Origin: a virus
Taxonomy: Duplodnaviria; Caudoviricetes
Virus record (IMG/VR): IMGVR_UViG_3300021255_002056
Location: 1-64,000 of that record
Reading direction: 5' to 3' (one strand)
DNA: 64,000 bases
Part shown: positions 2,257 through 17,577 of the stretch, in pieces
Numbering within the stretch: the first letter of the stretch is position 1
Layout: each line of letters begins with the position of its first letter
Notes under the pieces: model-generated
Seen by the model: only the letters and a program-made list of their open reading frames with translations
What the model was told of the DNA's origin: nothing
The model's database searches: none
Made by a program: the position numbers and the translations under genes

Positions 2257-2436
2257 TTATTCTTCTATAAGAACATATTTAGTTCCTAAATCATTGCAAT
2301 CAAGATGCACAGAGTTTGCTATTTTAAGCCCATACTCTCCAATAATTTCATCACATGCAAGTTCTCCAGCGTACACTACAACTGGAAGATTTTTATCAAG
2401 CTTTTCAAGCTTTGCAATCAGTTCACCGACTGTCAT
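2257..2436 (-). CDS. MTVxELI-family small protein (not in ORF track)
   Basis: MTVGELIAKLEKLDKNLPVVV..., GGAGAG RBS. Confidence 0.6.
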   Translation of the reverse strand: MTVGELIAKLEKLDKNLPVVVYAGELACDEIIGEYGLKIANSVHLDCNDLGTKYVLIEE

Positions 2437-2520
2437 TTTCTGCTCTCCTTATATTTTTTACTTTATTAAAATATCTTTAAAAACTGTAACCTGTTTACCG
2501 AAAAGAAAAAGAGTAGACGC

Positions 2521-3468
2521 TTATTTGCGCCTACCCTTTAACTGTTCTCTGAACATGACTGTGGTTTTATCTCTCTGGTGATAGTTATACAATGCCTCAA
2601 GATACTGAATGGCTTGATCTTTTGTAGCTGATGGTGGAAGAAGCATCCTACCATGTTTATCAAGCTTATCAATCATTCTCTGAGGATCAATAACATCATT
2701 CAATAAGAGATCAACCAGAATCTTCTTATAGCTTGACATAGTTTTTATGCCAATCAACTTCAAAGATTCGTTCATGATTGTGAGAGATTTTAAGACCTCT
2801 CTGGCCTTGTAATACTGCTCATCGTTAATATGGATGTAACCTTTCTTAAGGTTATTCTGAGTGTGTTTACCAACTACAACGTCCAGAATATCAGACAAGC
2901 TTACTTTCGGAAATTCGTCCTGTAAATTCTTCAAACGCTTGTAGTTGAAATTGCCGTCCTCAGAGTATGCCTTAATGTAATCGGATCCCTTCCAGCCTTT
3001 CTTCATGGAGTTCTTAGTTGCCACATCATAGATGGACATCTTTTTAACGACCATAAATTTGACCGGAGTATTTGACTTTTTGCAAGCCATAAAACGATGC
3101 TGACCATCCTCGATCTGAAATTTCTTATCGTCAGTCAAAGAAACTTCGATAGGAGCACCCTGCCATCCATTGACTTTCATATTCTCAGCAATCTTATTGA
3201 TGTGCTGAATATCAACGTCTCTGTTGGCTGTTCTGAAAACAAAATCGTCATAGTTACTGCTAGTGTAGATGTAATTTTCTTTCATACCTGTACCCTCCTT
3301 TACATCATTGATAGTGATTCCTAAATAGTCCAAATAATCTAAAAAGTCGTCCTCGTTTTTATACTCTTTAGATTCACCGCATTTAGTTACATATGCGTTA
3401 ACAAACTCTCCTTTGTTGTATACCGCAGAAATATCACCATGACGAATCGCTAAATAATAAGATTGCAT
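2521..3468 (-). CDS. ParB/Srx-like N-terminal domain protein (likely internal start at 3285)
   Basis: NRDVD...I..NM..NGW...PI.V...IEDGQHRF; strong RBS AAGGAGG before MKENY. Confidence 0.7.
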   Translation of the reverse strand: MQSYYLAIRHGDISAVYNKGEFVNAYVTKCGESKEYKNEDDFLDYLDYLGITINDVKEGTGMKENYIYTSSNYDDFVFRTANRDVDIQHINKIAENMKVNGWQGAPIEVSLTDDKKFQIEDGQHRFMACKKSNTPVKFMVVKKMSIYDVATKNSMKKGWKGSDYIKAYSEDGNFNYKRLKNLQDEFPKVSLSDILDVVVGKHTQNNLKKGYIHINDEQYYKAREVLKSLTIMNESLKLIGIKTMSSYKKILVDLLLNDVIDPQRMIDKLDKHGRMLLPPSATKDQAIQYLEALYNYHQRDKTTVMFREQLKGRRK

Positions 3469-3668
3469 TCTACTCTCCTTTGCAAAGAAAAAAAATAAAA
3501 GGAGTTTAATCCTCCTCGACTACATAATATTCTTCTTCGTGAATAATGTATTCGTGAAAATAAGCTCCAATTATTGTTCCGATACCGATACCGGCAATTA
3601 ATGCTACTAAAATATAAATCATAAATTTACCATACCTTTCTCATTATAGGGTCTGGAATTTTCGCGAA

Positions 3669-3893
3669 TTACTTTGTTTCCTTAACCTGTACGATCAAAT
3701 ACCGTTTTTTGTGTAATTCATCCAACGGACATAAAACAACAAAATTGTATTGATCTTTCTCTGGATCTGCAGTGCTAATACCAAGAATGGCGTCAATATT
3801 CCTATATGTCAGAATATTTGCTCCAATAATTCCTACAATTAGTCCAATTGCAACAGAGAAAAATATAATTAAATGAATAGCATCCATGATCAA
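3669..3893 (-). CDS. single-TM membrane protein
   Basis: N-terminal hydrophobic helix. Confidence 0.6.
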   Translation of the reverse strand: MIMDAIHLIIFFSVAIGLIVGIIGANILTYRNIDAILGISTADPEKDQYNFVVLCPLDELHKKRYLIVQVKETK

Positions 3894-4309
3894 TAACTCC
3901 TTATAACCTCGTATTCGGTTATCTTAATAGAATCCTTAGGATTTACAGCTGCCGGTATTTTACAGACTGCTCTAAGAATATCTCCGTCATAGTAATTAAA
4001 TGCAGAATAATAAGCTTCTACATCACTATAAATATCAGTGGGAAGTGAATAGTCTGGTACAGCATAATTCTTACCATCAAACGTACCAGGAAGGTAAGTC
4101 GGTTCTCTATACCTAGTTTTTAAATAGAACTTTTCTTCATCAAAACCAACTATTTCTCTTGATTCTTCAAATATCAATCCATAGCAATTGGTCTTGATTG
4201 CCTCGATAGGAGTTTTAACAAGTCTCAAACCCCAAATCTTACCTTTTGCAATGTCGTATTTTAATTGTTCTTGAATTTCTTTTTTCATTTCACTTATTAC
4301 TTCTTTCAT
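3890..4309 (-). CDS. hypothetical protein
   Basis: ORF track; GAGGAG RBS. Confidence 0.6.
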   Translation of the reverse strand: MKEVISEMKKEIQEQLKYDIAKGKIWGLRLVKTPIEAIKTNCYGLIFEESREIVGFDEEKFYLKTRYREPTYLPGTFDGKNYAVPDYSLPTDIYSDVEAYYSAFNYYDGDILRAVCKIPAAVNPKDSIKITEYEVIRSY

Positions 4310-4534
4310 TATTGCTCCTCGATTTCTAATAAAAAATAAAGGAGAAGAGCCTATGATAGACTCTCTCCTTAGCTGCGGTTTGAGAATAGAGAGGTATGCT
4401 CCGCAGGCTAACCAATGGCACCTCCTTTTGTTCTTTTATCTATATAAAAGGCTCGTGCCTGAATTAGCTGTTTTGTAAACCTCAATTTAATATAAACCAC
4501 CTCCTCATTATAGGCGTTGAAAATTACGCGAATC

Positions 4535-4879
4535 TTAAATTCTCTTAGACATTTCGATAATCAGATCACGTTTATAAGCTGAGAACATATCGCAATGTGC
4601 AGCAGAGATAACACCCTTATAAAAAGATGAGATACATCCGATCGGAAGATGAGAAATTGCTTCTTTCTTGTGCGAAGAAAACATATCACTGTTACTGATG
4701 GCTGTTACAGCGTCTCCGTATCCAGGAGCGTATTCATCATCGAGAATATCATCATCTTCGTCATCGATAAAGAAATCGTCCATAGTTGGTTCTTCTCTGT
4801 ATGCTCCGAGTTTTTCCATAAGTTTTGCATCAAGCAGCAACAAAATTCCCAATCCAAAAATCTTCATTAAATTCTTCAT
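4535..4879 (-). CDS. hypothetical protein, hydrophobic N-terminus and acidic linker
   Basis: ORF track; AGGAGG RBS. Confidence 0.6.
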   Translation of the reverse strand: MKNLMKIFGLGILLLLDAKLMEKLGAYREEPTMDDFFIDDEDDDILDDEYAPGYGDAVTAISNSDMFSSHKKEAISHLPIGCISSFYKGVISAAHCDMFSAYKRDLIIEMSKRI

Positions 4880-5081
4880 TTTTGTCCTCCTTAAATTTAA
4901 TTTGAAGAAAAAAAAGAGTCGTTATGAATGACTCCTTTCAAGTCCGTTCATACCAACCCATAAAATTAAACAAATAATTAATGTGAATACTGTTTTAATC
5001 ATGATTTTTCCTCCCTATTATTTATTCTCTTTCTCATTAGAGAGCATGAAAATTACGCGAGAGGAAAAAATAAAAAGAGTC

Positions 5082-5276
5082 TTATTTAGACTCTTTATCG
5101 GATGATCTTAATCCTAATTTACTCAACTCTGACCCGATCGATCCAGCAGTGTATTCACTACCAGCTTTGAATGCTTTGTTCAACAACCAAGTTGCTCCAA
5201 AGCTTCCAATAGCCAAGTATGCTAACTGCTTTACAATACCTTTCCTAGCCATTTTGTCGAATTCATTATTTTCCAT
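5082..5276 (-). CDS. small single-TM cassette protein
   Basis: Flanked by junction motifs; ends ESK*. Confidence 0.6.
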   Translation of the reverse strand: MENNEFDKMARKGIVKQLAYLAIGSFGATWLLNKAFKAGSEYTAGSIGSELSKLGLRSSDKESK

Positions 5277-5327
5277 AATAATACCTCCATTAAAGGATCG
5301 GAAATTTTCGCGAAGAATAAAAGAGCA

Positions 5328-5600
5328 TTATTCAGCTCTTTTAATACCCAAGTATAGAATTCCTGCTAAAACCAATGATACTGGCCAAGAAATGCATATT
5401 ATCATATACACCATTTCGAATATTAACATCAATCCGAATTTCGTTATTTTGATGCTATCTTTTACGCTTTCTGCAAAGCTGCCAAAGATTATTTCATCAA
5501 CATCAACGCCATCCACAAAGATCATTAATGCCAAAATAGCAAGATACGATATAATTGCAATAGCCCAATAAATTATTTTTAACATATCTATTACCTCCAT
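5328..5600 (-). CDS. multi-TM membrane protein
   Basis: Three hydrophobic segments; junction-flanked. Confidence 0.6.
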   Translation of the reverse strand: MEVIDMLKIIYWAIAIISYLAILALMIFVDGVDVDEIIFGSFAESVKDSIKITKFGLMLIFEMVYMIICISWPVSLVLAGILYLGIKRAE

Positions 5601-5626
5601 AAAAGACGGTGAAAAATAAAAGAGTC

Positions 5627-5778
5627 TTATTCAGACTCTTCATCACCGTTAAGCATGTGAACGTACTCAGTTAAAACTTTAATTGCATAGTCAACGCTGA
5701 TTTTCATTGCTAACCAATAGCCTCCAATAGCGCAAGCTGTTACGATCAAAGATTTAAAAATAAACATTATCATTTAAC
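5627..5778 (-). CDS. about 50-aa single-TM cassette protein (approximate bounds, not in ORF track)
   Basis: MLNDNVLFKSLIVTACAIGGYWLAM...EESE*. Confidence 0.45.
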
Positions 5779-5832
5779 ATACCCTCCTTGTCATAATAGA
5801 GGTAGAAAAATTCGCGAAAAAGAAAAGACTGG

Positions 5833-6030
5833 TTAGTCTTTATCAAAGACCATAACCATCTTTTCTTCGATGACTTCAATGGCGTCATCCATCCTTTCGT
5901 CTAAGTAATCTAATGCTTTTATAGACTCTTCTTCTATTTCCGGCCAATCATAAGCCACGATCTTTCCTAAACCGATCATGCTAATAACACTAACCGTAAA
6001 CAGTAAAACTAAACCTATAAATTTCTTCAT
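5833..6030 (-). CDS. small protein with N-terminal TM/signal segment
   Basis: MKKFIGLVLLFTVSVISMIGLG. Confidence 0.6.
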   Translation of the reverse strand: MKKFIGLVLLFTVSVISMIGLGKIVAYDWPEIEEESIKALDYLDERMDDAIEVIEEKMVMVFDKD

Positions 6031-6099
6031 TTTTCTCTACTCTCCTCACTATAGAGTATGAAAAATACGCGAAAAGAAAATATAAAAGAAAAAGAGTAG

Positions 6100-6291
6100 C
6101 TAAGACCTGCTACCCCATTCTATTTTGGATCGTTTTACAAATATCAATGTAATAATAACCGATACCACAAACATAATTATGTATAATACATTGCTTGGGT
6201 CATGTCCTAATAAGTCTATTGACGTAAGTAATGACACCTCAATGCATATACCAATAAATGCTGTGTGCAAAATATCTAATAAATTATTCAT
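6100..6291 (-). CDS. two-TM small membrane protein
   Basis: Hydrophobic; junction-flanked. Confidence 0.55.
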   Translation of the reverse strand: MNNLLDILHTAFIGICIEVSLLTSIDLLGHDPSNVLYIIMFVVSVIITLIFVKRSKIEWGSRS

Positions 6292-6358
6292 AATATAAGC
6301 CTCTCCTTTCCATAAAAGAAGAAGAAAAAAGAAAGAGTCCGAAGACCCTTAATAATCA

Positions 6359-6790
6359 TTACTCATTCATGAAGTAATGGTCTGCTAAAACTTCAGCTGA
6401 TTCATAAATAACCTTATTTCCATCAAACCAGAAATCAAATACATCGTCAGCTTCCTCGCCTTCGAACCCACTAGTCCATTCGTCGAGTGTAAACTCACGA
6501 GATTTCATCTCTAATTTATGGTCATTATGGCTAATTACAACATCAACCTTGTACATACCATTACGCCATTCAACTTCGTAATTCATATCAATACCATCGT
6601 ACTCATAATCTTCTTGAGAATCTTTTAAAGATTCAACAATTTCATAAAATACATCACAATCTTCGTTTGTAAACTTTTTAATAACTTCTTCCTCTGCTGG
6701 TTCTGTATCAGCCTCTACTGATTCGAACTGGCATCCAGTTAAATTTACTAAAACTAACAAAACAGTTAAAATTGAGAAAATTTTCTTCAT
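6359..6790 (-). CDS. lipoprotein (acidic)
   Basis: MKKIF...LVNLTGC lipobox. Confidence 0.7.
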   Translation of the reverse strand: MKKIFSILTVLLVLVNLTGCQFESVEADTEPAEEEVIKKFTNEDCDVFYEIVESLKDSQEDYEYDGIDMNYEVEWRNGMYKVDVVISHNDHKLEMKSREFTLDEWTSGFEGEEADDVFDFWFDGNKVIYESAEVLADHYFMNE

Positions 6791-6851
6791 TGTTCATACC
6801 CTCCTTTTTCTCATAAGAGAGGTCGAAATATCCGCGAAAAACAAAAGAGTC

Positions 6852-7064
6852 TTATTCAGACTCATTTGTTGAACCACTTGACACAGTAGATTCGCTTGAT
6901 CCGTAGTAGTTAGTGACGTGTGTTTCTTTTCCATCCCACTTGATTGCCTTAATAATTGCTGCAGGCGCCTCAATGAGAGACGTCACAGTAAAGAAAGTCA
7001 TCCAAGGATGTTCCTTAATAAATTCACCAACTCTTTCAGATAATGTTTTTCTTTCTTCTGCCAT
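6852..7064 (-). CDS. small cassette protein
   Basis: GGAGG RBS; ends ESE* in hairpin. Confidence 0.6.
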   Translation of the reverse strand: MAEERKTLSERVGEFIKEHPWMTFFTVTSLIEAPAAIIKAIKWDGKETHVTNYYGSSESTVSSGSTNESE

Positions 7065-7135
7065 AGTAATTTACCTCCATAATAGTCGTTGAAAAAATAA
7101 AGAGGACCTGTTTGATCCTTCTTTATTGGTGATAA

Positions 7136-7312
7136 CTATTTGCTGAATTTTCTTTTCAAAGCAGACCACTTATCTTTAAACCAGGTGTGAGCTGTTTTAA
7201 TACCTTGCCCATTGTTGACTGTACAGTCAAGCATTGCACCAAGGGATACGATCTCAACACCAAGTTTAACCCATTGTCTTACTTCTCTAGATCTTTCAAT
7301 GTTCTTAGCCAT
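7136..7312 (-). CDS. small cassette protein
   Basis: Start corrected to MAKNIE after GAGGAGG. Confidence 0.55.
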   Translation of the reverse strand: MAKNIERSREVRQWVKLGVEIVSLGAMLDCTVNNGQGIKTAHTWFKDKWSALKRKFSK

Positions 7313-7365
7313 AGTTAAATCCTCCTCGTAATAGAAGCTGAAAAACAAAAGAGCTTGTTAGGCTC

Positions 7366-7566
7366 TTATTCAAGAATATAAACATTTCCAGGAAGTTCTA
7401 TCTTCGCAGATCTGTCCATTTTATGCTTTCTCTTATATTGAAACATAAGATTAGCCTTTGCTCTGGATTCAGATTCTGCTTGAGTACCTCCCTTCCACAA
7501 ATCGTCTATAACTTTCCCAAATTGAGTAACTGCTCCTTCATAACGATAAAGTTTTCTTTCGTTCAT
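7366..7566 (-). CDS. hypothetical phage protein
   Basis: ORF track; GGAGG RBS. Confidence 0.65.
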   Translation of the reverse strand: MNERKLYRYEGAVTQFGKVIDDLWKGGTQAESESRAKANLMFQYKRKHKMDRSAKIELPGNVYILE

Positions 7567-7831
7567 AAACTTTACCTCCTTTTCATAAAAGAGGCAGAAA
7601 AAGAAAAGAGCTTGTTAGGCTCTTAATCAGACATAGATTTCATGATTTCTTTGTGACAAGAATTTATTTCGTTAAACACATATTTCCTAAGTTCGTCAAT
7701 ATCCATATCCGTACTAGGTTTAATTTGTGTAAAACCTTTTTGTTTCTTTTCCTCAAATATATCAGTGATCTCCTCACGTCTTTTAATTCTAAACATAATT
7801 CTTTTCTCCTTCTCATAATAGAGTCAGAAAA

Positions 7832-8248
7832 TTATACGAACTTCTTTTGCTGCCTATCCAGAATATAAAAGAATTTACGATACATCTGATAAAACATATC
7901 TCTTCCACATGGAACACCATCATGCATTCTGAAGTACGAATAAGTCAGGCCTTTAGTCACAGCCTTGAAAATATAAACTCCAATAACCGGATCTGTAGCT
8001 AGAGCGCACTTTTCGATCATGTCCATCTTTTCCAAATATCTTTGACGTACAGCTAAGCTTTCGTCGTCTTGCAAATGGCTATTAGAACTTACACGAATCA
8101 CCCCACCGGGAATTTTTTCACATAACGATTCGTAAATCTTCTTGAATTCCGGGTATTGCAAACAGAAATGCTTAAGCTCATAGTAACGATGTTTTGAAAT
8201 ATAATACTGGTTTTTCTTTGATACTTCAGATCTAATTACTGTTCCCAT
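7832..8248 (-). CDS. putative transcriptional regulator (RinA/ArpU-like helical protein)
   Basis: YYELKHFCLQYP...KAVTKGLTY...YRKFFYIL; family assignment tentative. Confidence 0.45.
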   Translation of the reverse strand: MGTVIRSEVSKKNQYYISKHRYYELKHFCLQYPEFKKIYESLCEKIPGGVIRVSSNSHLQDDESLAVRQRYLEKMDMIEKCALATDPVIGVYIFKAVTKGLTYSYFRMHDGVPCGRDMFYQMYRKFFYILDRQQKKFV

Positions 8249-8504
8249 CGTACATATACCCCGTTTCTTCATATAATCTTTTCGGTGAAATATAATAATT
8301 GATCCTACCTTTCTTAGATCCCATCTGGCTTACGTTAGTAATACGTTCGCCGTTCCTTGTAGCAAATCCAATTGGCAGCCATCCGGATATCAATCCGGCT
8401 CGTATCCAGTTCTGGTCTTTCTTATAGACTTTTGCTGCGATTTTAACTGGCACGCTTTTTTCGCAAAAAATAATAGGACTTGTTACAAATTTGTTCGAAT
8501 TCAT
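8232..8504 (-). CDS. putative winged-helix DNA-binding protein (excisionase/Cro-like)
   Basis: VPVKIAAKVYKKDQNWIRAGL...YYISPKRLYEETG. Confidence 0.5.
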   Translation of the reverse strand: MNSNKFVTSPIIFCEKSVPVKIAAKVYKKDQNWIRAGLISGWLPIGFATRNGERITNVSQMGSKKGRINYYISPKRLYEETGYMYDGNSN

Positions 8505-8752
8505 ATGCTTTTACCTCCGATGTACCAATAGTAAAAAGAAAAGAGGTAACCTACATACTGAAAATATAAGTCTTAAGCGAAGACCATGTATTTTGAAAGA
8601 GGTATGAATAATGATTGAGGACAAAACAAATCATGAAAGGATTGGGTAATGGCCTCCGCTTAAGACTGGCAACGTGGCCTGGGTATTGGCCAACGACAAG
8701 CAGTTTAATAAATATCTATATACGCAAAAGAAAAAGAGACTTTAATAAGTCT

Positions 8753-8926
8753 CTAACATGTACCAAAAGTAGCCATGATTTTCTTTAAATAGTTACGATC
8801 TCTGCCCAGAACTAAGCAAATTGTTTCATCATCGAAACCTTCTTTTCTTAAATCCCGAGCTGTGTAATAATCAGCTAACAATTTCTGTCCAAGTCTGACT
8901 CTTTTAGTTTCTTTAGTGTTTTTCAT
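8753..8926 (-). CDS. small HTH-like protein (approximate bounds, not in ORF track)
   Basis: MKNTKETKRVR...ARDLRKEGFDDETICLVLGRDRNYL. Confidence 0.4.
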   Translation of the reverse strand: MKNTKETKRVRLGQKLLADYYTARDLRKEGFDDETICLVLGRDRNYLKKIMATFGTC

Positions 8927-9000
8927 TATATAAACCTCTCCTTTTCATAATAGGAGATGAAAATTACGCGAAATAAATTCAAGTAAAAATAAAAAGAGTC

Positions 9001-9192
9001 TTAAATAGACTCTCTGATTACTACATGATTTTCTAATATAACTTCTTCACCATCTACATTTCTTTTTACTACTTTGCGAGTACCAACTTCTGCAATTGGT
9101 ATAATCTCATCCTTTTTAATGTTATAAATAGCGATAGGAAGTTCTTGATCATACTCTTGTAGTGCTTCAATTAAATCTTTAACTCTCTTCAT
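9001..9192 (-). CDS. MTVxELI-like family small protein
   Basis: MKRVKDLIEALQEYDQELPIAI; start corrected. Confidence 0.6.
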   Translation of the reverse strand: MKRVKDLIEALQEYDQELPIAIYNIKKDEIIPIAEVGTRKVVKRNVDGEEVILENHVVIRESI

Positions 9193-9236
9193 TTTGATTT
9201 CCTCCTTCATAAGAGCAGCCGAAAAACAAAAGAGTC

Positions 9237-9434
9237 TTATGCAGACTCTTCGTTTGATTCTTTGGCAACAGATTCCTCTGTCAGGATGCCGATGTCTTTT
9301 AAATGACATTCAAGCCCATCGATCTCTGTGCTAAGTTCCATCATCTTAGCTTTGAGATGTTTAGCTTTTTGCCTTTCTTTAAAAGCTATAAACAGCGATC
9401 CAATTGTAATTAATCCTAGTAATTTGTTGCTCAT
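9237..9434 (-). CDS. single-TM coiled-coil protein
   Basis: ORF track; ends EESA* in hairpin. Confidence 0.6.
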   Translation of the reverse strand: MSNKLLGLITIGSLFIAFKERQKAKHLKAKMMELSTEIDGLECHLKDIGILTEESVAKESNEESA

Positions 9435-9497
9435 TTTGAATCCTCCTTCATAATAGGAATGGTAATATTCGCGAAAAGAAAAGGACTTAGTAAGTCC

Positions 9498-9713
9498 TTA
9501 ATCTAATTCTTTGCATGCCTGATTAAAATGCCGTACATATATGCTTAGCTCTCTTATTGCCGTTTCTGCTTCATCACAACACTCCTGATCAGTCGAATAA
9601 GTCTCCTGATCGAGTATTGTTAAAGCTTCCATGGCTTTATCTTCTATCGCTTCAGCATAGTATAATAAAGCATCTTTCTTGCAGCTGAAATTAGATAAAT
9701 CTAAAACCTCCAT
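9498..9713 (-). CDS. cassette protein, KKDALxYYA paralog 1
   Basis: Start corrected to MEVL. Confidence 0.6.
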   Translation of the reverse strand: MEVLDLSNFSCKKDALLYYAEAIEDKAMEALTILDQETYSTDQECCDEAETAIRELSIYVRHFNQACKELD

Positions 9714-9806
9714 ATTGTCCTCCTTCATAAAAGACGGAGTTATTTCTGCGAAATACAGTTTTCACTTTGTTCAAACAGAAAAATAAAAGAGGATTTATAG
9801 TCCTCT

Positions 9807-10010
9807 TTATAGCCATTCATGTTCCAAGGCTTCTTTATAATGCTTATAAAAAATATCAACCCATCTGGCATTACGATTTGACTCATCAAAGTCTGGTTCG
9901 TCCTTGTTCAAACATTCCAGAGCTTTTGCTGAGAAATCGAGCATACCTTTTGCATAATATCTTAATGCATCCTTTTTAGTCTCGAAATGATTAATGCTAT
10001 AAATACCCAT
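9807..10010 (-). CDS. cassette protein, KKDALxYYA paralog 2
   Basis: Start corrected to MGIY. Confidence 0.6.
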   Translation of the reverse strand: MGIYSINHFETKKDALRYYAKGMLDFSAKALECLNKDEPDFDESNRNARWVDIFYKHYKEALEHEWL

Positions 10011-10077
10011 CTTTATTTTCCTCCTCATAATAGAACAGGAAAAATAAAAGAGCCAGTGCTCCTTAACCCCTTTTCGG

Positions 10078-10168
10078 ATCGGATTCAAACCGACGCTGAT
10101 AGCTTATCCGTACATATAGGATTTCTATACGGAGTACGATCGTCATCGTAACCAGGATTCAAACCTGG
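10078..10168 (-). ncRNA. candidate structured RNA with two T-loop hairpins
   Basis: CCAGG-TTTGAAT-CCTGG and GTCGG-TTTGAAT-CCGAT with two hairpins between; no convincing ORF in this cassette. Confidence 0.4.
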
Positions 10169-10230
10169 CAGGCCCAATTAGTTCAACTCTTTTATTTCTC
10201 CTCGTAATAGAACACGAAAAATAAAAGAGA

Positions 10231-10551
10231 CTATTTGATAGTCTCCAAAGATTTGTAGAATTTTACCGCATCGGATTCCAATTCAAATTTTCCATCTGTT
10301 GCGATCTTGTATATTTCATAGACTTCTTCCTCTGGCAATCCTAAATGATCCAGCCAGTCCGCAAAATAACTTCTATGATGCGGGCCTCTTGGATTCTTAA
10401 CTTTAGCATAGCACCCACTAAAATCGCCTATGCTCTTTGCCCAAGATGCAATATACCTTGAATATGGAATTCCCTGCGATGAAATCTTATTTTCATTGTA
10501 ATTCTCCGGAATACCACCAATAGTAAACTCTCTTATTTCAATATTACTCAT
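10231..10551 (-). CDS. hypothetical phage protein (GIPYSRYIASW)
   Basis: Start corrected to MSNIE. Confidence 0.6.
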   Translation of the reverse strand: MSNIEIREFTIGGIPENYNENKISSQGIPYSRYIASWAKSIGDFSGCYAKVKNPRGPHHRSYFADWLDHLGLPEEEVYEIYKIATDGKFELESDAVKFYKSLETIK

Positions 10552-10632
10552 TCTGTAATACCTCCTCATAAGAGAATAAGTTATTTCTGCGAAATACAGT
10601 TTCGCTTTGATCAAACAGAAAAATAAAAGAGA

Positions 10633-10935
10633 CTATGATAAGTCTCTAATTTTTGACAGTAAATTAACTACATCGTTGTCTGTTAGCCGGCCCTCTACAT
10701 CGTCCGTGATGTCCGTATCATATACAAGATCAAAATCATCAATAATATCAGGATTTCTGTATTCTACAACAGCTAGCTCCCAAAGATCCTTATCAGATCC
10801 ATAGGAGCCAAAGTGTTTTACTACAGATGCTCCATATCCATTATCAAATTTGAATAAATACTGAACTCCGTCGAATAAAGGCCCTTTCTTAATTAAATAG
10901 TTTTCAAAACCGTCATAATTTAAATTCTTCGTCAT
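10633..10935 (-). CDS. hypothetical phage protein (FDNGYGASVV...LWELAV)
   Basis: Recurrent phage motif; start corrected. Confidence 0.65.
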   Translation of the reverse strand: MTKNLNYDGFENYLIKKGPLFDGVQYLFKFDNGYGASVVKHFGSYGSDKDLWELAVVEYRNPDIIDDFDLVYDTDITDDVEGRLTDNDVVNLLSKIRDLS

Positions 10936-10980
10936 ACTCTTTTCCTCCTTCATTAAAGAGTAGGAAAAAGAAAAGAGACG

Positions 10981-11307
10981 CTAAGCTTCAGCGTCCCAAG
11001 AATTGTCTTCTTCGTCACAAATACGTTGGACATCCTCTTTGCCAATCCATTTTTCGCCAAAGTGATCGAGTATTTCCTGACGAGAATACCCTTCTCGATA
11101 CATATCTAAAACCATTTTGTCTCTTCTTTTGAGTTCGTCATTAAATTTATCCAACATTTCAGCGGACTGTTTCAGTTCTTCAAACCTACGTTTTAGCTCA
11201 ATTTCTTGCTTAGCTTTTGTATAAGACTTCACAAAAGTTGAACCTAACACAATAGTGTTTTTGACAACTACATAAATCCCGATAATTTCAAATAAATTAT
11301 ATTTCAT
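10981..11307 (-). CDS. hypothetical protein with possible C-terminal HTH
   Basis: VLDMYREGYSRQEILDHFG. Confidence 0.55.
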   Translation of the reverse strand: MKYNLFEIIGIYVVVKNTIVLGSTFVKSYTKAKQEIELKRRFEELKQSAEMLDKFNDELKRRDKMVLDMYREGYSRQEILDHFGEKWIGKEDVQRICDEEDNSWDAEA

Positions 11308-11403
11308 AACGTAATTCCTCCTCATAAGAGAATAAGTTATTTCTGCGAAATACAGTTTTCACTTTGCTCAAACAGAAAAATAAAAGAGCCTTATTCAGAC
11401 TCT

Positions 11404-11718
11404 TTAGTCAAGCAAAGGCTCTTCAACAACATATAATTCATGTTCTTCAACAACCCCTGTAAGTGAATATTTGATACAACATTTTATTGATCGTCTTATC
11501 ACTCCGTTAAAAAATACTGTTTTATCTTCAGATATTTCGCATTCGTCTTCTAAAAAACCATCTGATTCTATTAAAAACTTTTTGATATCAATTTCTTTAA
11601 TAAAATCAATTGCGCTTTTTCTAGTTTTAAACACTTTTATCACTAAACAGTATTTTTCATCATAATCTCCGTAATCAACATCCGTTTCATCTAATACTAA
11701 ATACACAGTGTCATTCAT
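11404..11718 (-). CDS. cassette protein, VYxV...VFKTxxxA paralog
   Basis: Start corrected to MNDTVY. Confidence 0.6.
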   Translation of the reverse strand: MNDTVYLVLDETDVDYGDYDEKYCLVIKVFKTRKSAIDFIKEIDIKKFLIESDGFLEDECEISEDKTVFFNGVIRRSIKCCIKYSLTGVVEEHELYVVEEPLLD

Positions 11719-11762
11719 TTTGAATTTCCTCCTCATAAGAGCCATAGAAAAATAAAAGAAGC

Positions 11763-12176
11763 TTAAATCTTAGCTTCTTTCATCCAGAACTCAATCTCGA
11801 CTTTCGGATCGATTTTTAAGCACCCTATAAGCTGTAGCTCATCGCCTAATCTGTAGGTCATAATATTCCTTTTCATTTGCTTATTGATCCAATTAATGAA
11901 CTGTTTTGTGCAAGCTTCTCTTATGAAGTCATTATACTCAACAAGTTCTGTCCAATCTTTACCCTTATTTTCTTCGAAATAATTCGGGTGAAGTTCGTTC
12001 CATTCTTTGTTAAGCTTTTCATATCCTTCATCAGAGTTACATAACTTTGCATAAACATTATGCGTCTGCATTAGCTCTTCTTTCATAAGCTTTTCTAAAC
12101 CAGGAATAAACCTAGCGAACGATTTCTTAAAGTTTCTTATCTCATAGTGCACTTCAAAATATAATTCGTGTTCCAT
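11763..12176 (-). CDS. hypothetical protein
   Basis: Junction-flanked. Confidence 0.6.
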   Translation of the reverse strand: MEHELYFEVHYEIRNFKKSFARFIPGLEKLMKEELMQTHNVYAKLCNSDEGYEKLNKEWNELHPNYFEENKGKDWTELVEYNDFIREACTKQFINWINKQMKRNIMTYRLGDELQLIGCLKIDPKVEIEFWMKEAKI

Positions 12177-12220
12177 TTGAATTCCTCCTCATAATAGACG
12201 AAGAAAAATAAAAGAGGAAA

Positions 12221-12391
12221 TTAATCCTCATAGTCATACTCGATCTTCACCGAAACATTTTTTATGTGCGGATCTGATTGCTTTATTTTATCAGCCCAAA
12301 ATAGTTCTTCAAGATTGGGCTTTTTCTTTATAAGCTTTCCATTAATCTCTTTCTCTGCTTGCTTCAGTAAATCAAGTGACATTTTATTCAT
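12221..12391 (-). CDS. hypothetical protein
   Basis: Junction-flanked; start corrected. Confidence 0.55.
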   Translation of the reverse strand: MNKMSLDLLKQAEKEINGKLIKKKPNLEELFWADKIKQSDPHIKNVSVKIEYDYED

Positions 12392-12435
12392 AATTGAATT
12401 CCTCCTCATAAGAGAACCAGAAAAATAAAAGAGCC

Positions 12436-12657
12436 TTATTCAGACTCTTTGGACTTTTTATTTTTATTTCTTACAAGTTTACGACCGATAAAATATATAG
12501 CTGTAGTAAATAGCGTACCAATAAATATTCCGTGTTTATTTCCTTCATCGTATGCATCCGTCAAGGCAGGATATACGAAATCCGGATTAAAATCGATAAT
12601 TGGTTCAGCCAAATCATTAAATATATTATTAACGGTTTTTTCTCTATGTGTAAGCAT
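12436..12657 (-). CDS. single-TM protein
   Basis: GIFIGTLFTTAIYFIG then basic tail; ends ESE*. Confidence 0.6.
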   Translation of the reverse strand: MLTHREKTVNNIFNDLAEPIIDFNPDFVYPALTDAYDEGNKHGIFIGTLFTTAIYFIGRKLVRNKNKKSKESE

Positions 12658-12700
12658 AAAAATCTCCTTTCCATTAAAGACCTGGAAAAATAAAAGAAGT

Positions 12701-12985
12701 CTAAAATTCGGCTTCTTTTAAATTCTGAAAATACAAAATGTGATTAATATAACTTTCTATTAAAGTTTTCTTATACTCTTTTAGTTTTTTTAAATCACGT
12801 TTCGCTACAACAAGCATTCTATACATTTGATTATTATGCATAAAAGCTGGATAATATTCAATTTGTGCATAAGTAAATAGCCAATTATCACGATAATCTT
12901 TTTTACATAAATAATTAAAATATTTTATCTCTCTATCTGATTGCGTAAAAAGAATATAAAAATCTTTATTATCTATAATTTCCAT
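12701..12985 (-). CDS. hypothetical protein
   Basis: Junction-flanked. Confidence 0.55.
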   Translation of the reverse strand: MEIIDNKDFYILFTQSDREIKYFNYLCKKDYRDNWLFTYAQIEYYPAFMHNNQMYRMLVVAKRDLKKLKEYKKTLIESYINHILYFQNLKEAEF

Positions 12986-13215
12986 TTCGATTTTCTCCTT
13001 TCATAAAAGAAAGAGAAAAATAAAAGAGCCTTATTTAGGCTCCATGCTGTTTTTGACGAGATGCCAATCTTTGTCATCCCATAATCTTTCAAAAGTCTCT
13101 AAATCATCAGAATCAACTGTAACCTTTTCATCTGTGATTTCATTTTGAAATACTATAGTAAAACCCATTTTGCATTTCCTCCTTCATTAAAGAACTAGAA
13201 AAATAAAAGAGGACA

Positions 13216-13488
13216 TTAGTCCTTCTTATCCCAATACCCAAATCCATGAGTTTTGAAATATTCGTCAAATGTCCAGTTTTTCTTTTTCGGAATCTCAAAG
13301 TCACCCATAAGCATCGGATGCGCATATATTGTGGCTATTGCAACACGATATGGATTGAGTCTATCAAGTGGCTTCAAATGTTTCACAACAAAATCGGCGA
13401 CATCATGATCGTAAACCTCAGTTCCATCGTCCCGTGAGCTATACCCATAATCATCGTGATTCTCAAAATACTTATTAAGTTTTTTCAT
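13216..13488 (-). CDS. hypothetical protein
   Basis: Junction-flanked. Confidence 0.6.
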   Translation of the reverse strand: MKKLNKYFENHDDYGYSSRDDGTEVYDHDVADFVVKHLKPLDRLNPYRVAIATIYAHPMLMGDFEIPKKKNWTFDEYFKTHGFGYWDKKD

Positions 13489-13545
13489 AATAAATTCCTC
13501 CTCATAAGAGAATGAGAAAAATAAAAGAGCTTGTTACAGCTCTTT

Positions 13546-13899
13546 TCAGAAAATATCACCGTATAAAGTAAATTCAATAATTGATACGCATTTCGTAAAT
13601 TCCTCCCAGCAAAGACGTTTATGATTTATTGGGATTAATAGTAATTCTTGAAAATAATTTTCATCATCGTAGTCGTCTAATTCAAACGCAGATGAAAGCC
13701 GTAAATAATACTGATTTTTTATCTTTTCAGTATTCAACATATACCTATAACTTCCATCTGAATTTGGACCAAATAACGAGACTCTACCAGTTTCTGATTT
13801 CCAATAATCAAGATTTTCCCCATTACCATTTCTGTCAAAGCCTTCCTGAAAGAAAATTGTGGATACTGCTTTAATTATTTCTTTTTGTTCTTTTGTCAT
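13546..13899 (-). CDS. hypothetical protein
   Basis: Junction-flanked. Confidence 0.6.
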   Translation of the reverse strand: MTKEQKEIIKAVSTIFFQEGFDRNGNGENLDYWKSETGRVSLFGPNSDGSYRYMLNTEKIKNQYYLRLSSAFELDDYDDENYFQELLLIPINHKRLCWEEFTKCVSIIEFTLYGDIF

Positions 13900-13955
13900 A
13901 TTTCCTCCTCATAAGAGTCAGAGAAAAATAAAAGAGTCTTATTTAGACCCTTCTT

Positions 13956-14132
13956 TTAATCCTCTAAAAGTACTTCATTAATATGCAATAGTTTAACTAT
14001 CCCATTGTTATTAATATGATCAATGTATTCTTCTGCTTTTTCTTTTGTTTTAAACGCAATGATAGCATCCGAAGCACCGTAATCATCACTATAATCAGAC
14101 GGATAGTCTTCTACTACAACATAAATTTTCAT
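13956..14132 (-). CDS. cassette protein, VYxV...FKTKEKA paralog
   Basis: Start corrected to MKIYVV. Confidence 0.6.
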   Translation of the reverse strand: MKIYVVVEDYPSDYSDDYGASDAIIAFKTKEKAEEYIDHINNNGIVKLLHINEVLLED

Positions 14133-14175
14133 ATCTTTTTCCTCCTCATAAAAGTAAGAGAAAAATAAAAGAGCC

Positions 14176-14439
14176 TTATTCAGACTCTTCACTCAGTTTT
14201 CTTCCGCAAAATGGGCAATAATTAATTCCCAATTGTTTTTGAAATATAAGTGTGTAATGATCTTCTTTGCTATCGTAGAATTCAACACTAGTATCAATAC
14301 TAGGATCCCATTCCTCGTTTCCAAATTGGATAATGCGGAATATCAATGATCCGATCGAACCAATATCGATTTCTTCATCGGCGTGATAATATTCATCTCT
14401 TGCACCTATTTCTTTTTTCTTTTCACAATATTTGCACAT
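14176..14439 (-). CDS. zinc-binding protein (CKYC...YCPFCGRKL)
   Basis: Two CxxC pairs; ends EESE*. Confidence 0.65.
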   Translation of the reverse strand: MCKYCEKKKEIGARDEYYHADEEIDIGSIGSLIFRIIQFGNEEWDPSIDTSVEFYDSKEDHYTLIFQKQLGINYCPFCGRKLSEESE

Positions 14440-14494
14440 TTTGTTTACCTCCTCATAAAAGTAAGAGAAAAATAAAAGAGCCTGTTAAAGCTCT

Positions 14495-14878
14495 TTATAT
14501 AAGTTCGAATTCTTCAATGTATAATATTACATCCCAAATATCAGATCCATAGAAAATTGAATCATCAAGCATGTACTCATTATTTAATAATGTTTTAATA
14601 CTCTCATTTATTTCTTCATCAGAATATCGTGTGAATACATAGCCATCTTTATCTTCGTGACATATAATTTTTCTTTTGTTTTCATAATTATTATCGATTA
14701 AAACTTTAATGTTATCGAAATAACCATGATCTAGTCCAGATTTCTCAATGTCATAATTTGCGATGTATTCTTTAGCTTTTTCCGATGATCCAGCAACACA
14801 TAACAAATATGTATTATGCTCATGATCCTCATATTCTCCTCTATTAGATTCTTCTTTTAAAACACAATATACTTTCAT
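14495..14878 (-). CDS. cassette protein, VYxV...SSEKA paralog
   Basis: Start corrected to MKVYC. Confidence 0.6.
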   Translation of the reverse strand: MKVYCVLKEESNRGEYEDHEHNTYLLCVAGSSEKAKEYIANYDIEKSGLDHGYFDNIKVLIDNNYENKRKIICHEDKDGYVFTRYSDEEINESIKTLLNNEYMLDDSIFYGSDIWDVILYIEEFELI

Positions 14879-14922
14879 TTTGAATTTCCTCCTCATAAGA
14901 GTCAGAGAAAAATAAAAGAGTC

Positions 14923-15120
14923 TTATTTAGACTCTTCATTAGAATTATATCCGATATAAAGCACAGTTGTATCAGTTCTTTCATTATAATGCTCGTGAAC
15001 ATGAGTTATTGGACCCTCTACATAACTCCAATCATCTCCGTCGCCAGCTAGTCCATCAATACAAACTTCCATATCAGGATTAAGTAATTCTAATTTTTCT
15101 TTAAGCTCTTTTACTGTCAT
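14923..15120 (-). CDS. MTVxEL-family small protein
   Basis: MTVKELKEKLELLNPDMEVCI; start corrected. Confidence 0.6.
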   Translation of the reverse strand: MTVKELKEKLELLNPDMEVCIDGLAGDGDDWSYVEGPITHVHEHYNERTDTTVLYIGYNSNEESK

Positions 15121-15228
15121 AAATATTTCCTCTCTTTCATAATACACTCTGTAATTCGCACGAAGGTTACGATGTGGTATGATGTAATCGGTTCGTACAT
15201 TGTCATAAGAGAAAGGAGAATATATTAC

Positions 15229-16302
15229 ATGACAAGAGCCAAACGCCATATGAAGCTGCCAAACGGCTTCGGACAGATCACTAAGATCCGAGGGAATCTT
15301 AGAAAACCATATCGAGTAATGACCACTGTAGGAATATCAGCAGAAGGAAGACCGATCTGTAAGATACTCAAGCCTCAAGGATACTTTGAGACCTACAACG
15401 AAGCTTATTACGCTCTGATGGAGCATCATAAAAATCCATATGATGTAAGTCAGGACACAACATTTTCCGAACTGTTCGAGGAATGGATCAAACTTAAAGC
15501 CGATACAGTATCTGAAGGAAGACTCAGACTGCTGAAATCAACATTCAAGAACTTATCTGATCTACATGGTATGCCTATGCGTGAAATAAAGCCTAGAATT
15601 ATCCGTGCTCAAATGGACAAATTCTCGTATCTGGTAAGAGGACCTAAGGATGTTAAAACTTTGCTGAATTTGGTATTTGACTATGCTATTGAAAACGAGA
15701 TAGTTGAAAAGAACTACGCCAGAGAAATCCGGTCGAACACCAAGATTGAAGAAGGATCACATCATATCTCTTTCACAGATGATGAAATATCAGTCTTATG
15801 GAGTCATTCAGATGAGGATCCGGTAAAGATGATGCTGATTCAGTGTTATACCGGTTTGAGACCTGGTGAATTAGTTAATCTAAAAGCTGAGAATATCTTT
15901 CTTGACGAGAATAAGATCGTGACAGGATCTAAATCAGAAGCTGGAAGAAACAGACAGATACCTATTCATCCTTGTATTTTGGAATTTGTGAAACATTTTA
16001 TGAAATTTTCATCCGGGAAAAATTTTGGATTTCTATTTTGTGATTCCCACAGTGAAAAAGTACGGATAGAAAGCTACAGAACGTCATTTAAGGAAATTAT
16101 TGAAAAATATCAGCTGAATCCTGAGCATAAGTGTCATGATCCGAGGAAGTTCTTTGTTACTACTGCTAAGAAATATCAACTTAATGAGTATGCAATTAAG
16201 CGTATTGTAGGACATAAAATCAAGGATTTGACTGAGAAAGTCTATACTGAAAGATCGTTTGACTGGTTATACTCTGAAATTTGCAAAATTAAGAGTGTAT
16301 GA
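15229..16302 (+). CDS. int: tyrosine recombinase / phage integrase
   Basis: N-terminal LPNGFGQI arm-binding region; catalytic TGLRPGEL (R), K, HDPR (HxxR), GH, YT; RBS GAAAGGAG places the start at 15229. Confidence 0.93.
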   Translation: MTRAKRHMKLPNGFGQITKIRGNLRKPYRVMTTVGISAEGRPICKILKPQGYFETYNEAYYALMEHHKNPYDVSQDTTFSELFEEWIKLKADTVSEGRLRLLKSTFKNLSDLHGMPMREIKPRIIRAQMDKFSYLVRGPKDVKTLLNLVFDYAIENEIVEKNYAREIRSNTKIEEGSHHISFTDDEISVLWSHSDEDPVKMMLIQCYTGLRPGELVNLKAENIFLDENKIVTGSKSEAGRNRQIPIHPCILEFVKHFMKFSSGKNFGFLFCDSHSEKVRIESYRTSFKEIIEKYQLNPEHKCHDPRKFFVTTAKKYQLNEYAIKRIVGHKIKDLTEKVYTERSFDWLYSEICKIKSV

Positions 16303-16488
16303 ATAATGTACAAACGGGGCAAGATTAATGGCTTTTAACCGCATCCTACCCCGTCAAAATATCAGTAATTATGCATGTTTTCGCATAATTATTAGTTAAA
16401 TGGTGATCAGTACGGGATTAATTCGTATCGTAAAAACCATAATAAATAAAGCATTTTATTGAATCACTGTATGAACAATGTACGAACC
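16296..16488. other. putative attP with arm-type sites and tRNA-3'-like core (16401-16419)
   Basis: TGTATGAAYAATGTACRAAC at 16296 and 16468; the minus-strand core AATCCCGTACTGATCACCA resembles a tRNA T-arm, acceptor and CCA. Confidence 0.65.
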
Positions 16489-16510
16489 ACGGCAAAAATA
16501 AAAGGACCTG

Positions 16511-16762
16511 TTAAGATCCTTTTAAATTAGATTCAACTTTATTACGATATTTATCATATTCCATTTTTAATTGAGAATAAGAAGATTCTAAAGCTTTTAT
16601 TCGTTTAGTTCTTATTCCATATGCATTACTACAAATAAAATCTATTATGCCGATATCATTTGTATAAATTGGACAGTATTTTAAGAACTCTTCTTTAATG
16701 TTCTTTAAAACTCTAATTCTATTACTTTTCTCAATTATTTTAGGCATTCCTTTATTTTTCAT
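16511..16762 (-). CDS. hypothetical cassette protein
   Basis: Junction-flanked; start corrected. Confidence 0.55.
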   Translation of the reverse strand: MKNKGMPKIIEKSNRIRVLKNIKEEFLKYCPIYTNDIGIIDFICSNAYGIRTKRIKALESSYSQLKMEYDKYRNKVESNLKGS

Positions 16763-16851
16763 AATTAAGTTCCTCCTCATAAGAGAACTGGAAAAATAAA
16801 AGACAGCTCCATCAGCTAAGTGAAGGAGCTTTAGATTCAACTGCTTATTTA

Positions 16852-17577
16852 TTAATTGACGCCACCCGTGGTTGGATATCCGTCTTCGTTTGTGAATCCG
16901 AAATTTAACACATTAAAAGTATCAAAAGTGGCATTGTACTGTGCTTCCAATAAGTGTATTCTATCCTCCAAGCATTTTGCTAATAAATATACCGTCCCTT
17001 GTGCAGTGCTATTTGTGGCACCAATAAAAATTACATTTTGACCTTTTAAAACAGCAGAATAGATTTCGCTATATTTTTTATTCAAAGTGTACGCATTCGC
17101 AATTGGGTTCTTATCAACTTCAACAATTAAGCCTAATGCAGAAGTAAAACTATCATTTACTTCAAATTTTTGAACTTTTTCATTAATTTTCAGCGAATAT
17201 GTCCCAGTTTCGGCGGTCATAACGTTGGTAGCACCAAAGAGAATGTCAATATAAACTGGAAAATTTGTGAAACTTGGATCTGTTTCTCCAACTTCGCCCC
17301 AATATTCGCCATCTTCTTCGCTATGTACGTAAGGCAATGTGTAATTCTCTCCGTTGAAAGTTACAGAAATATCTGATTTAGGAAGGTCACCTTGCAAAGT
17401 AATTATTGCTGACGGAAAAACCCCCCCATCTTCAATTGTCGTTACTTCTCCATCAAATAAATACATTTCATTAACAGAGTAGATTCCCCCACCTGTGGCA
17501 ATTCCATCCTCCATGTGGTTCAACTTTTCTTCAGTGATTAAATCACCTGTGTTCCAAGTCTGTTTTTCGTAAGCCAT
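16852..17577 (-). CDS. YxKQTW-family virion accessory protein 1
   Basis: MAYEKQTWNTGDLITEEKLNHMEDGI N-terminus. Confidence 0.7.
   Translation of the reverse strand: MAYEKQTWNTGDLITEEKLNHMEDGIATGGGIYSVNEMYLFDGEVTTIEDGGVFPSAIITLQGDLPKSDISVTFNGENYTLPYVHSEEDGEYWGEVGETDPSFTNFPVYIDILFGATNVMTAETGTYSLKINEKVQKFEVNDSFTSALGLIVEVDKNPIANAYTLNKKYSEIYSAVLKGQNVIFIGATNSTAQGTVYLLAKCLEDRIHLLEAQYNATFDTFNVLNFGFTNEDGYPTTGGVN

Follow-up and report, generated by a model that had tools for sequence, protein, structure and literature searches.

Composite terminator- and promoter-like joints between exchangeable small genes in the putative accessory region of a 1706-like siphovirus

In lambdoid and other temperate phages, Hendrix and colleagues described morons, accessory genes that carry a promoter and a terminator of their own. 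Integron cassettes are promoterless and are expressed from a common promoter, Pc, in a system that comprises IntI, attI and attC. T4-type phages offer the closest parallel to the locus treated here: their PeSL (promoter-early stem-loop) elements bring together a stem-loop terminator, an early promoter and a Shine-Dalgarno sequence (SD) ahead of ORFans in hyperplastic regions and mediate insertions and deletions, and mini-circles have been demonstrated (Arbiol et al. 2010, PMC2839356; Comeau et al. 2014, PMC4122927). Here we analyse a row of small genes in a viral genome, the 85,080-bp IMG/VR record IMGVR_UViG_3300021255_002056 (called G000), the first 64 kb of which make up the window, together with the composite junctions, or joints, that lie between these genes.

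We consider it likely, taking the explanation as a whole, that this array is the hyperplastic accessory-gene region of a temperate 1706-like siphovirus. The phage is a siphovirus, whose tape-measure protein has 2,518 aa and whose protease and capsid are encoded by one fused gene; it further has a large terminase (TerL), a primase-polymerase and a helicase. All of its genes lie on the minus strand with the single exception of an integrase. The order and strand of the genes agree with those of Lactococcus phage 1706 (packaging, head, tail, many small genes, replication, polymerase), and the array takes the place of the "many small genes" block in this layout. A megablast search of the array against 50,697 phage records gave no near-identical match, and the TerL relatives gave no indication of the host, their assemblies being labelled with many phyla.

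Anatomy of the joints and their cargo

The array occupies the coordinates and the strand given in a first-pass annotation of the window, which had also described about 35 single-gene cassettes connected by one composite junction.

2500-16835, minus strand: cassette array of 43 units (39 small open reading frames (ORFs), three units resembling non-coding RNAs and one micro-ORF), with composite joints between them.

Among the 43 units found between 2.3 and 16.8 kb, the promoter-like motif described below is present in 34, a terminator in 36 and both in 32, in good agreement with that earlier count. The architecture of the joints was derived by reading and aligning every intergenic stretch. They are 43-100 nt long and consist of a terminator-like hairpin with its T-run, then the promoter-like motif, then the SD. 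Terminator-like hairpins with a T-run were found at 40 sites in 1-19 kb, compared with 7.9 +/- 3.0 in shuffled sequences, nearly all of them on the minus strand and at the ends of genes, and the stop codon of the upstream gene is often found inside the hairpin together with its last 3-4 codons. In eight cassettes the stop codon is within the hairpin loop (GAG TCT GAA TAA GACTC), so that unrelated proteins end in one E/K-E-S-E/K tail. The stems themselves vary, with at least 23 different inner 6-mers, and pairing with the unit's own partner arm is 100%, compared with 55% for the arms of other units.

The motif is 35 nt long and has the form (TCGCG or CTCTT)-wAwwTTyC-N5-CTnTwATGA, with the SD coming next; a shortened form is TCGCG-N13-CTnTwATGA. 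Its core word CTCTTATGAGGAGG occurs in 15 copies at <=2 mismatches where 0.35 were expected, all of them on the minus strand at 4.5-16.8 kb. A motif model, which the first-pass annotation had recommended, was built from the joints as a 35-nt weight matrix and found 40 forward copies and none in reverse over the 85-kb genome, compared with 0-1 in Markov shuffles. The gap from the end of the motif to the start codon is 9-20 nt. It had been stated that the ATG follows 6-10 nt after the ribosome-binding sequence; the ATG does lie shortly downstream of GGAGG, but the distance from this GGAGG-type SD is 4-10 nt. Since a terminator-like hairpin, a promoter-like motif and an SD come together at the joints, each gene looks like a self-contained unit. 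The earlier proposal to this effect holds for the presence of the three kinds of signal, while the promoter part is a prediction and has no match to the sigma-70 consensus.

Three classes of joint can be distinguished. In type A joints (43-57 nt, mostly at 9.8-16.8 kb) the wAwwTTyC element is formed by the terminator's own T-run, and the SD coincides with the purine-rich end of the motif. Type B joints are found mostly at 2.5-9.5 kb and have a separate TTCGCG box past the T-run. Type C joints, of which there are three, are type A joints into which 46 nt with a TCGCA box have been inserted.

14879-14937, minus strand: typical type A joint, with the hairpin GAAGAGTCT-AAATA-AGACTCTTT (14937-14915) carrying the upstream stop codon in its loop; the T-run TTTTATTTTTC at the same time forms the motif's upstream half and is followed by N5, the core CTCTTATGA ending at 14893, GGAGG at 14892-14888 and ATG at 14878.
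8927-9015, minus strand: typical type B joint, with the terminator at 9015-8993, then TTCGCG-TAATTTTC-ATCTC-CTATTATGA (motif window 8979-8945), the SD and ATG at 8926.
11308-11405, minus strand: long type C joint, with the terminator at 11405-11383, the 46-nt insert with TCGCA-GAAATAAC, and the core CTCTTATGAGGAGG; the other type C copies stand ahead of the genes at 10551 and 9713.

The cassette that had been placed on the far side of the integrase was found there, and the other end of the array is formed by its only unit with a recognisable product.

16511-16811, minus strand: outlying cassette beyond the integrase, with its gene at 16511-16762 and its motif at 16811-16777.
2521-3468, minus strand: last unit of the array, encoding a ParB-like protein (phrog_12305), then a strong terminator at 2539-2508.

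Past the array (2257-1 on the minus strand, then from 85080 of G000 downwards) the small genes overlap or abut and have no joints, the change from one-gene units to an operon being sharp at about 2.5 kb.

The cargo had been described as unrelated small ORFs and apparent non-coding RNAs, and our results support both parts of this description. The proteins are ORFans and essentially unrelated, with one significant paralogue pair only, and Pfam and PHROGs put a name on the ParB-like gene only among the cargo of the array. Two possible paralogue families noticed by eye, MTVxELxxKL...P.V.Y (14923-15120, 9001-9192 and 2257-2436, minus strand) and MKxYxVxxE...KxKxxAxxYI (14495-14878, 13956-14132 and 11404-11718, minus strand), were rejected, as neither was significant with phmmer. 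The products of most cassettes behind type B joints (4922-5002, 3506-3893 and 5328-6790, minus strand) are very small and contain a hydrophobic stretch of membrane-like character, and the cargo in the type A half consists mostly of small acidic soluble proteins. It may be that the two types of joint divide the cargo into two classes that differ in function or in timing.

Three units without a credible ORF fold better than shuffled sequences (z about -3), and the motif stands ahead of two of them, at 10236 and 4539.

10040-10212, minus strand: cassette resembling a non-coding RNA, with the motif, then about 165 nt without an ORF, two T-arm-like hairpins (GGTTTGAATCC) and a terminator; the hairpins are CCAGG-TTTGAAT-CCTGG and TCGG-TTTGAAT-CCGA, and the minimum free energy gives z = -3.3.
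4335-4512, minus strand: cassette resembling a non-coding RNA, with a type B motif (window 4539-4505) in front and a terminator-like hairpin at its end.
8515-8735, minus strand: non-coding stretch that is structured (z about -3) and lacks the motif.

No known RNA family or transfer RNA (tRNA) was found among the non-coding cassettes with Rfam (at gathering and at E <= 1) or with ARAGORN on the window. In phage 1706 a tRNA-like stretch is found behind a copy of the motif at about 31.1 kb of its record (L171), with a D-arm and a T-arm visible by eye and no clear anticodon arm. ARAGORN reported no tRNA in 1706, in the cultured phage P1046 or in Microbacterium phage Camille, and the stretch in 1706 is therefore not a canonical tRNA.

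Exchange of cassettes at the joints

The turnover of the array can be followed by comparing G000 with a second virus record, IMGVR_UViG_3300021431_000010 (84,113 bp; called G001), whose TerL is 100% identical and whose DNA is about 96% identical. The 26-kb replication region of the two forms one unbroken aligned block; the array is broken up and is their most rearranged region. Four cassettes are found in G000 and not in G001, with one case of the reverse, one cassette is at a different site in G001, and three others are replaced by alleles of 37%, 52% and 76% identity.

14176-14439, minus strand: cassette in G000 only, with a 35-nt identical joint repeat on its flanks.
13546-13899, minus strand: cassette in G000 only; G001 has an unrelated 125-aa cassette elsewhere in the block.
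13216-13488, minus strand: moved cassette, which in G001 stands behind a type C and not a type A joint; N5, core and SD have moved along with it.
10231-10551, minus strand: cassette in G000 only, with the crossover in 19 nt common to hairpin arm and T-run.
5328-5585, minus strand: cassette in G000 only, with the crossover in the T-run.
6359-6790, minus strand: swapped cassette, with the 37%-identical allele in G001; the first 44 nt (a signal-peptide-like start) alone are common to both.

A comparison of related genomes had been put forward as a way of finding out whether breakpoints fall in the junctions. Sixteen of the 17 internal ends of homology blocks lie in the joint zone, which makes up 24% of the array (binomial P = 1.5e-9), and the breakpoints are thus not random. 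The sole block end outside a joint is 44 nt into the gene at 6359-6790, at the point where the shared signal-peptide-like start ends. Triplets of joints from G000 and G001 show clean chimeras, in which the hairpin goes with the upstream gene and N5, core and SD go with the downstream gene. The site of crossover varies, being a 35-nt identical stretch in the first event, 19 nt of hairpin arm and T-run in the second, the T-run in the third, and the CTTTAATG core in the transposition.

Furthermore, nine stretches from seven metagenome contigs (L174-L182) carry this joint, each with 3-22 copies of the motif, of which none is in reverse; over half of the cassettes in them are new, and their order has been permuted in part. 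Between the cultured phages 1706 and P1046, one cassette is missing and one 144-bp mini-cassette is tandemly duplicated, in both cases at joints. In P1046 (L172) this mini-cassette of 144-145 bp, made up of the motif, an ORF of about 20 codons and a terminator, stands at 25137, 25282 and 25426, and it is single in 1706. The duplication is a fresh product of unequal crossover at joints in a cultured phage. Distant relatives have 2 of 40 cargo proteins in common with G000. The suggestion of the first-pass annotation that shared junctions allow insertion, deletion and reordering of the cargo is thus borne out in G000 and G001, in the nine metagenome stretches, and in 1706 and P1046. Short metagenome contigs with the joint, inspected as candidates for cassette mini-circles, had no terminal repeats.

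The joints are near-identical direct repeats of 20-60 nt, and we propose that homologous recombination or copy-choice between them deletes, inserts, duplicates, transposes or replaces single cassettes and also re-pairs hairpins with promoters. Recombination between joints is probably assisted by two proteins encoded in G000, a single-strand annealing protein (phrog_4787) and an exonuclease (phrog_3953). Since the crossovers are variable, the arms of the stems co-vary and the annealing protein and exonuclease are encoded by the phage itself, the exchange is best understood as driven by homology and not as site-specific recombination. The differences between cassettes might be suspected to be artefacts of assembly, as the joints are repeated and G000, G001 and L174-L182 were all assembled from short reads. 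We find this hardly conceivable, since repeats of 20-60 nt are below the length of sequencing reads, the joint variants are internally consistent (the hairpin with the upstream gene, the core with the downstream gene), and a like pattern is seen in 1706 and P1046, which were isolated and sequenced separately.

The first-pass annotation had called the logic of the array integron-like, and a tyrosine integrase is indeed located inside it.

15229-16302, plus strand: tyrosine integrase, the only plus-strand gene, with Pfam Phage_integrase and the SAM-like and central domains.
15190-15203 and 16475-16488: perfect 14-nt inverted repeats GGTTCGTACATTGT, between which the integrase module lies.
16296-16315 and 16468-16487: 20-nt direct repeat in the 200-nt non-coding stretch beside the integrase.

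The inverted and direct repeats at the integrase are likely to be its binding sites or attP. If this neighbouring integrase recombined the hairpin sites, the cassettes would be moved site-specifically, and its position would fit, as would the single cassettes as units of change and the many hairpins with 7-9-bp arms and a 5-7-nt loop, which are like a recombinase core site. This is nevertheless highly improbable. The crossovers took place in four different parts of the joint, the CTTTAATG core included, with no fixed point; the stems vary and co-vary, and hence contain no conserved word for a protein to bind; and the integrase has the domains of an ordinary phage integrase with its own adjoining set of repeats. 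The integrase was sought in the metagenome stretches by tblastn on the loci. The integrase is kept in place in G001 and L177 (50% identity), but in L180 its module is not at the same place, a unit resembling a non-coding RNA being there instead, and the start of the array is still shuffled. Phages 1706 and P1046 are shuffled alike, and the examined parts of their records contain no annotated integrase. The integrase looks like an ordinary phage module, one more variable insert in the region and not the engine of the shuffling. The integron-like logic is therefore not upheld as a mechanism, given the variable crossovers, the co-varying stems, the array of L180 and the phage's own annealing protein and exonuclease. 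The accompanying remark that the sites are not attC was correct, as the hairpins have no conserved core and the crossover is not fixed.

Beside the array on the minus strand are two paralogous tail-fibre-like genes (16852-17577 and 17816-18592) with about 30 N-terminal residues in common (MAYEKQTWNTGD...), both followed by the same terminator, AGCTCCTTCACTTAGCTGAkGGAGCT. G001 has a 123-aa gene in place of the second of these genes, with the N-terminus alone retained. The pair looks like a swappable receptor-binding cassette.

The shared motif and the polymerase that may read it

The motif is old and not specific to the array. Outside the array, G000 has six or seven copies at 66-83 kb, which stand in front of early genes and replication genes; in the 45-kb structural block no copy was convincing. 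TerL-related phages have 8 (G002), 7 (G004) and 11 (G005) forward copies and none in reverse; TerL of G005, the one of the three for which identity was measured, is 73% identical to that of G000. The motif of these phages, TTCGCG-wAwwTTwC-N5-CTnTwATGr, usually comes straight after a terminator and is separated from the SD by 1 to about 30 nt. A motif homologous to it, CGCA/CACA-TGTTTTAC-N5-CTATAGTAG, is present in phage 1706 in 11 copies with none in reverse, and P1046 has 10 copies. In Microbacterium phage Camille (GC 56%) it takes the form TCGCG-TAAATTAC-N5-TTATTATGAGAA, with identical spacing, and is found after terminators about 20 nt ahead of the SD. The 18-bp motif of Microbacterium cluster EC was considered as the same signal and rejected, since its core CT[AC]TAGG is not on the coding strand of Camille, which has TCGCG...TATkrTGAGAA instead. 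The literature searched, whose coverage did not extend to the 2008 paper on 1706, contained no described promoter or repeat for 1706, CHPC971 or P1046.

The candidate reader of the motif is a 998-aa protein of G000 with a match to PHROG 4291 at E = 0 and weak matches to RdRP and a C-terminal helix-turn-helix (HTH) domain.

62313-64000, minus strand, running on to 65309 past the window: 3' part of the two-barrel RNA polymerase gene (PHROG 4291; weak RdRP and C-terminal HTH/sigma-r4-like matches).

A "1706" family of YonO-like two-barrel RNA polymerases, named after ORF75 of phage 1706, was proposed by Ruprich-Robert and Thuriaux (PMC2919709). YonO, which transcribes the late genes of SPbeta as a single operon, has one mapped start site and no consensus (PMC5467207). 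The polymerase gene is also present in G001, G002 and G005, and that of Camille encodes a protein 44% identical to the one in G000; on the G004 contig (89% complete) the motif is present and no polymerase gene was seen. In the genomes compared, the motif travels with the PHROG 4291 polymerase across host phyla, its spacing and strand being conserved. Since the two co-occur in all but one incomplete contig, the motif is probably the promoter of the 1706-type polymerase. To our knowledge, no promoter is known for this class of two-barrel polymerase, and no enzyme of the 1706 family has been tested at the bench.

We therefore put forward the following scheme as a proposal. The motif would be the promoter of the phage's own single-chain two-barrel RNA polymerase (PHROG 4291, the 1706 ORF75 family), and transcription would start within ATGA or directly downstream of it. 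The first nucleotides transcribed would be those of the purine-rich tail (GAGGAGG, GAGAA, TAGAAAG), which in the G000 array serves as the SD as well, and every small gene or small RNA would be a transcription unit of its own.

Since the distance between motif and SD varies in the relatives, the motif is more readily understood as a signal in DNA, for transcription, than as a translation signal. An upstream CTCC/CCTC could pair with GGAG/GAGG in several joints, and the conserved word might accordingly act in RNA, either as a hairpin that hides the SD by CTC:GAG pairing or as a site for cleavage or binding by a phage protein. Such a role is very improbable, as CTnTwATGA is still kept in relatives where up to about 30 nt separate the motif from the SD, the copy at 81461 in G000 has its SD 18 nt away, and non-coding units are also preceded by the motif. 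The SD-hiding hairpin in particular was rejected, because motif and SD come apart in the relatives.

A further question is whether the motif might be read by the host RNA polymerase, redirected by a sigma-like or activator protein of the phage. The core contains a -10-like hexamer (TATTAT, TATAAT, TCTTAT), and YonO, the sole tested relative, transcribes late and not early genes (PMC5467207). In addition, the operon of the polymerase gene is itself headed by a copy of the motif at 66314, and this presents a bootstrap problem if the virion does not bring the enzyme with it. We nonetheless regard the host enzyme as an unlikely reader. No register of the motif suits sigma-A, position -11 being variable or position -7 being A/G, and there is no -35 element at 16-18 nt; sequence and spacing are kept in phages of Firmicutes-type and of Actinobacteria hosts that have the polymerase; and no sigma factor was found among the early proteins scanned, many of which are unknowns. 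An ordinary sigma-70 promoter at the joints was rejected, as a consensus scan found 67 sites where 82 were expected, none of them at joints, and no register of the motif satisfies the rule of A at -11 and T at -7.

The type A joints call for separate consideration, since they are found in the G000 lineage only and do not have the TCGCG box, which all distant relatives conserve. They might be non-promoters, with the half of the array at 9.8-16.8 kb being polycistronic from a few type B and type C promoters, the hairpins acting as attenuators or 3' stabilisers, and CTCTTATGAGGAGG being a strong ribosome-binding region spread by recombination; the three type C joints with the full box are indeed distributed over this half. 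This is a distinctly unlikely arrangement, in our opinion, because type A joints retain 22 of the 27 motif positions, the invariant C, C, CT, T, AT and G among them, with unchanged spacing, most copies in phage 1706 are also without CGCG, and a hairpin with a T-run at nearly every junction would be a heavy cost for an operon that depends on read-through.

Several points weigh against the proposal that the joints are promoters of the 1706-type polymerase and substrates of homologous exchange. The activity of both promoter and terminator is a prediction from the sequence. A start near ATGA would put the SD at the extreme 5' end of the mRNA, which would be unusual, and the type A joints, without a box that is nearly invariant in distant relatives, may be weak, differently regulated or not promoters. 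A two-barrel polymerase of this kind might not obey terminators made of a hairpin and a U-tract, and it might be a late-gene polymerase, as YonO is (PMC5467207), and not the reader of early-looking units. With regard to the exchange, selection for intact genes would on its own also push the surviving breakpoints into intergenic DNA, and G000, G001 and the metagenome contigs are short-read assemblies.

A bolder version of the proposal, which we advance tentatively as a possibility, takes the 43-nt type A joint as near-minimal and fully overlapping expression punctuation. In it, the U-tract of the terminator would be the upstream element of the promoter, the initially transcribed purines would be the SD, and the reader would be a two-barrel polymerase that is possibly delivered by the virion. 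The same 43 nt would be a portable homology by which the annealing protein and exonuclease could take up any gene and rearrange it, which would amount to an integron that has no integrase. The promoter of the polymerase family would be defined by the natural variants, roughly 40 in each genome.

Significance and comparison with known systems

If our reading is correct, cassette shuffling mediated by terminator and promoter extends from T4-like myoviruses to temperate 1706-like siphoviruses, the dairy Lactococcus phages included, and this recombination logic also works with a promoter-like motif that is unlike the host consensus. In the joints, a candidate promoter of the 1706-family polymerase is available as an alignment of about 40 natural variants, which makes the question of its promoter directly testable in vitro. 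The cargo of about 40 ORFans would probably be independently expressed accessory genes, and host takeover or anti-defence are functions for which they are natural candidates. A natural expression joint as compact as this, with signals that overlap, has practical interest as well.

The promoters of T7-type class II and III genes and the early promoters of the N4 virion polymerase are known sets of phage-polymerase promoters. Like them, the motif of G000 is a conserved word of 20-30 nt that would reach up to the start site, is repeated before phage genes and is unlike host promoters; the enzyme differs from those of T7, N4 and SPbeta (YonO) in being a 1706-family two-barrel polymerase. Intergenic motifs of actinobacteriophages (SAS and ESAS in clusters K and EF, and the 18-bp motif of Microbacterium cluster EC) have a function that is stated to be unknown (PMC7302621, Jacobs-Sera et al. 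2020). They are similar in being asymmetric motifs on the same strand, repeated 10-12 times, a few to 30 nt before start codons, but their sequences are different, and no fusion to terminators, cassette shuffling or link to a phage polymerase has been reported for them (PMC7302621).

The array resembles morons in that single accessory genes lie between other genes with candidate signals of their own, found in the sequence at 32 of the 43 units. Morons, however, are scattered and have no common junction, whereas here one family of joints links about 40 units and serves as the substrate of recombination. With integrons the array has in common a one-directional row of unrelated single-gene cassettes, a tyrosine recombinase nearby and a hairpin element after each gene. 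It differs in having no fixed crossover and no conserved core of the attC type, in the promoter-like motif that 34 of the 43 units have for themselves where integron cassettes share Pc, and in an integrase that is of the phage type and dispensable in the array of one relative.

The logic of cassette shuffling has already been described for the PeSLs of T4-type phages (PMC2839356, PMC4122927), and the system of G000 works alike. In both, a stop codon, a stem-loop terminator, a promoter or promoter-like motif, an SD and a start codon form one module, the promoter and terminator of G000 being predicted ones. In both, the module stands before ORFans in a hyperplastic region, insertions, deletions, replacements and moves between near-identical phages end at the modules, and homologous recombination is the proposed mechanism. 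The differences lie in the promoter, the phage and the degree of order. The PeSL has a strong sigma-70-like early promoter, whereas the joints of G000 have a phage-family motif that travels with a two-barrel polymerase, and the PeSL phages are T4-like myoviruses, whereas G000 would be a temperate 1706-like siphovirus. Finally, the array of G000 is far more regular, with about 40 units in 14 kb, and its joints are as short as 43 nt, with their signals overlapping.

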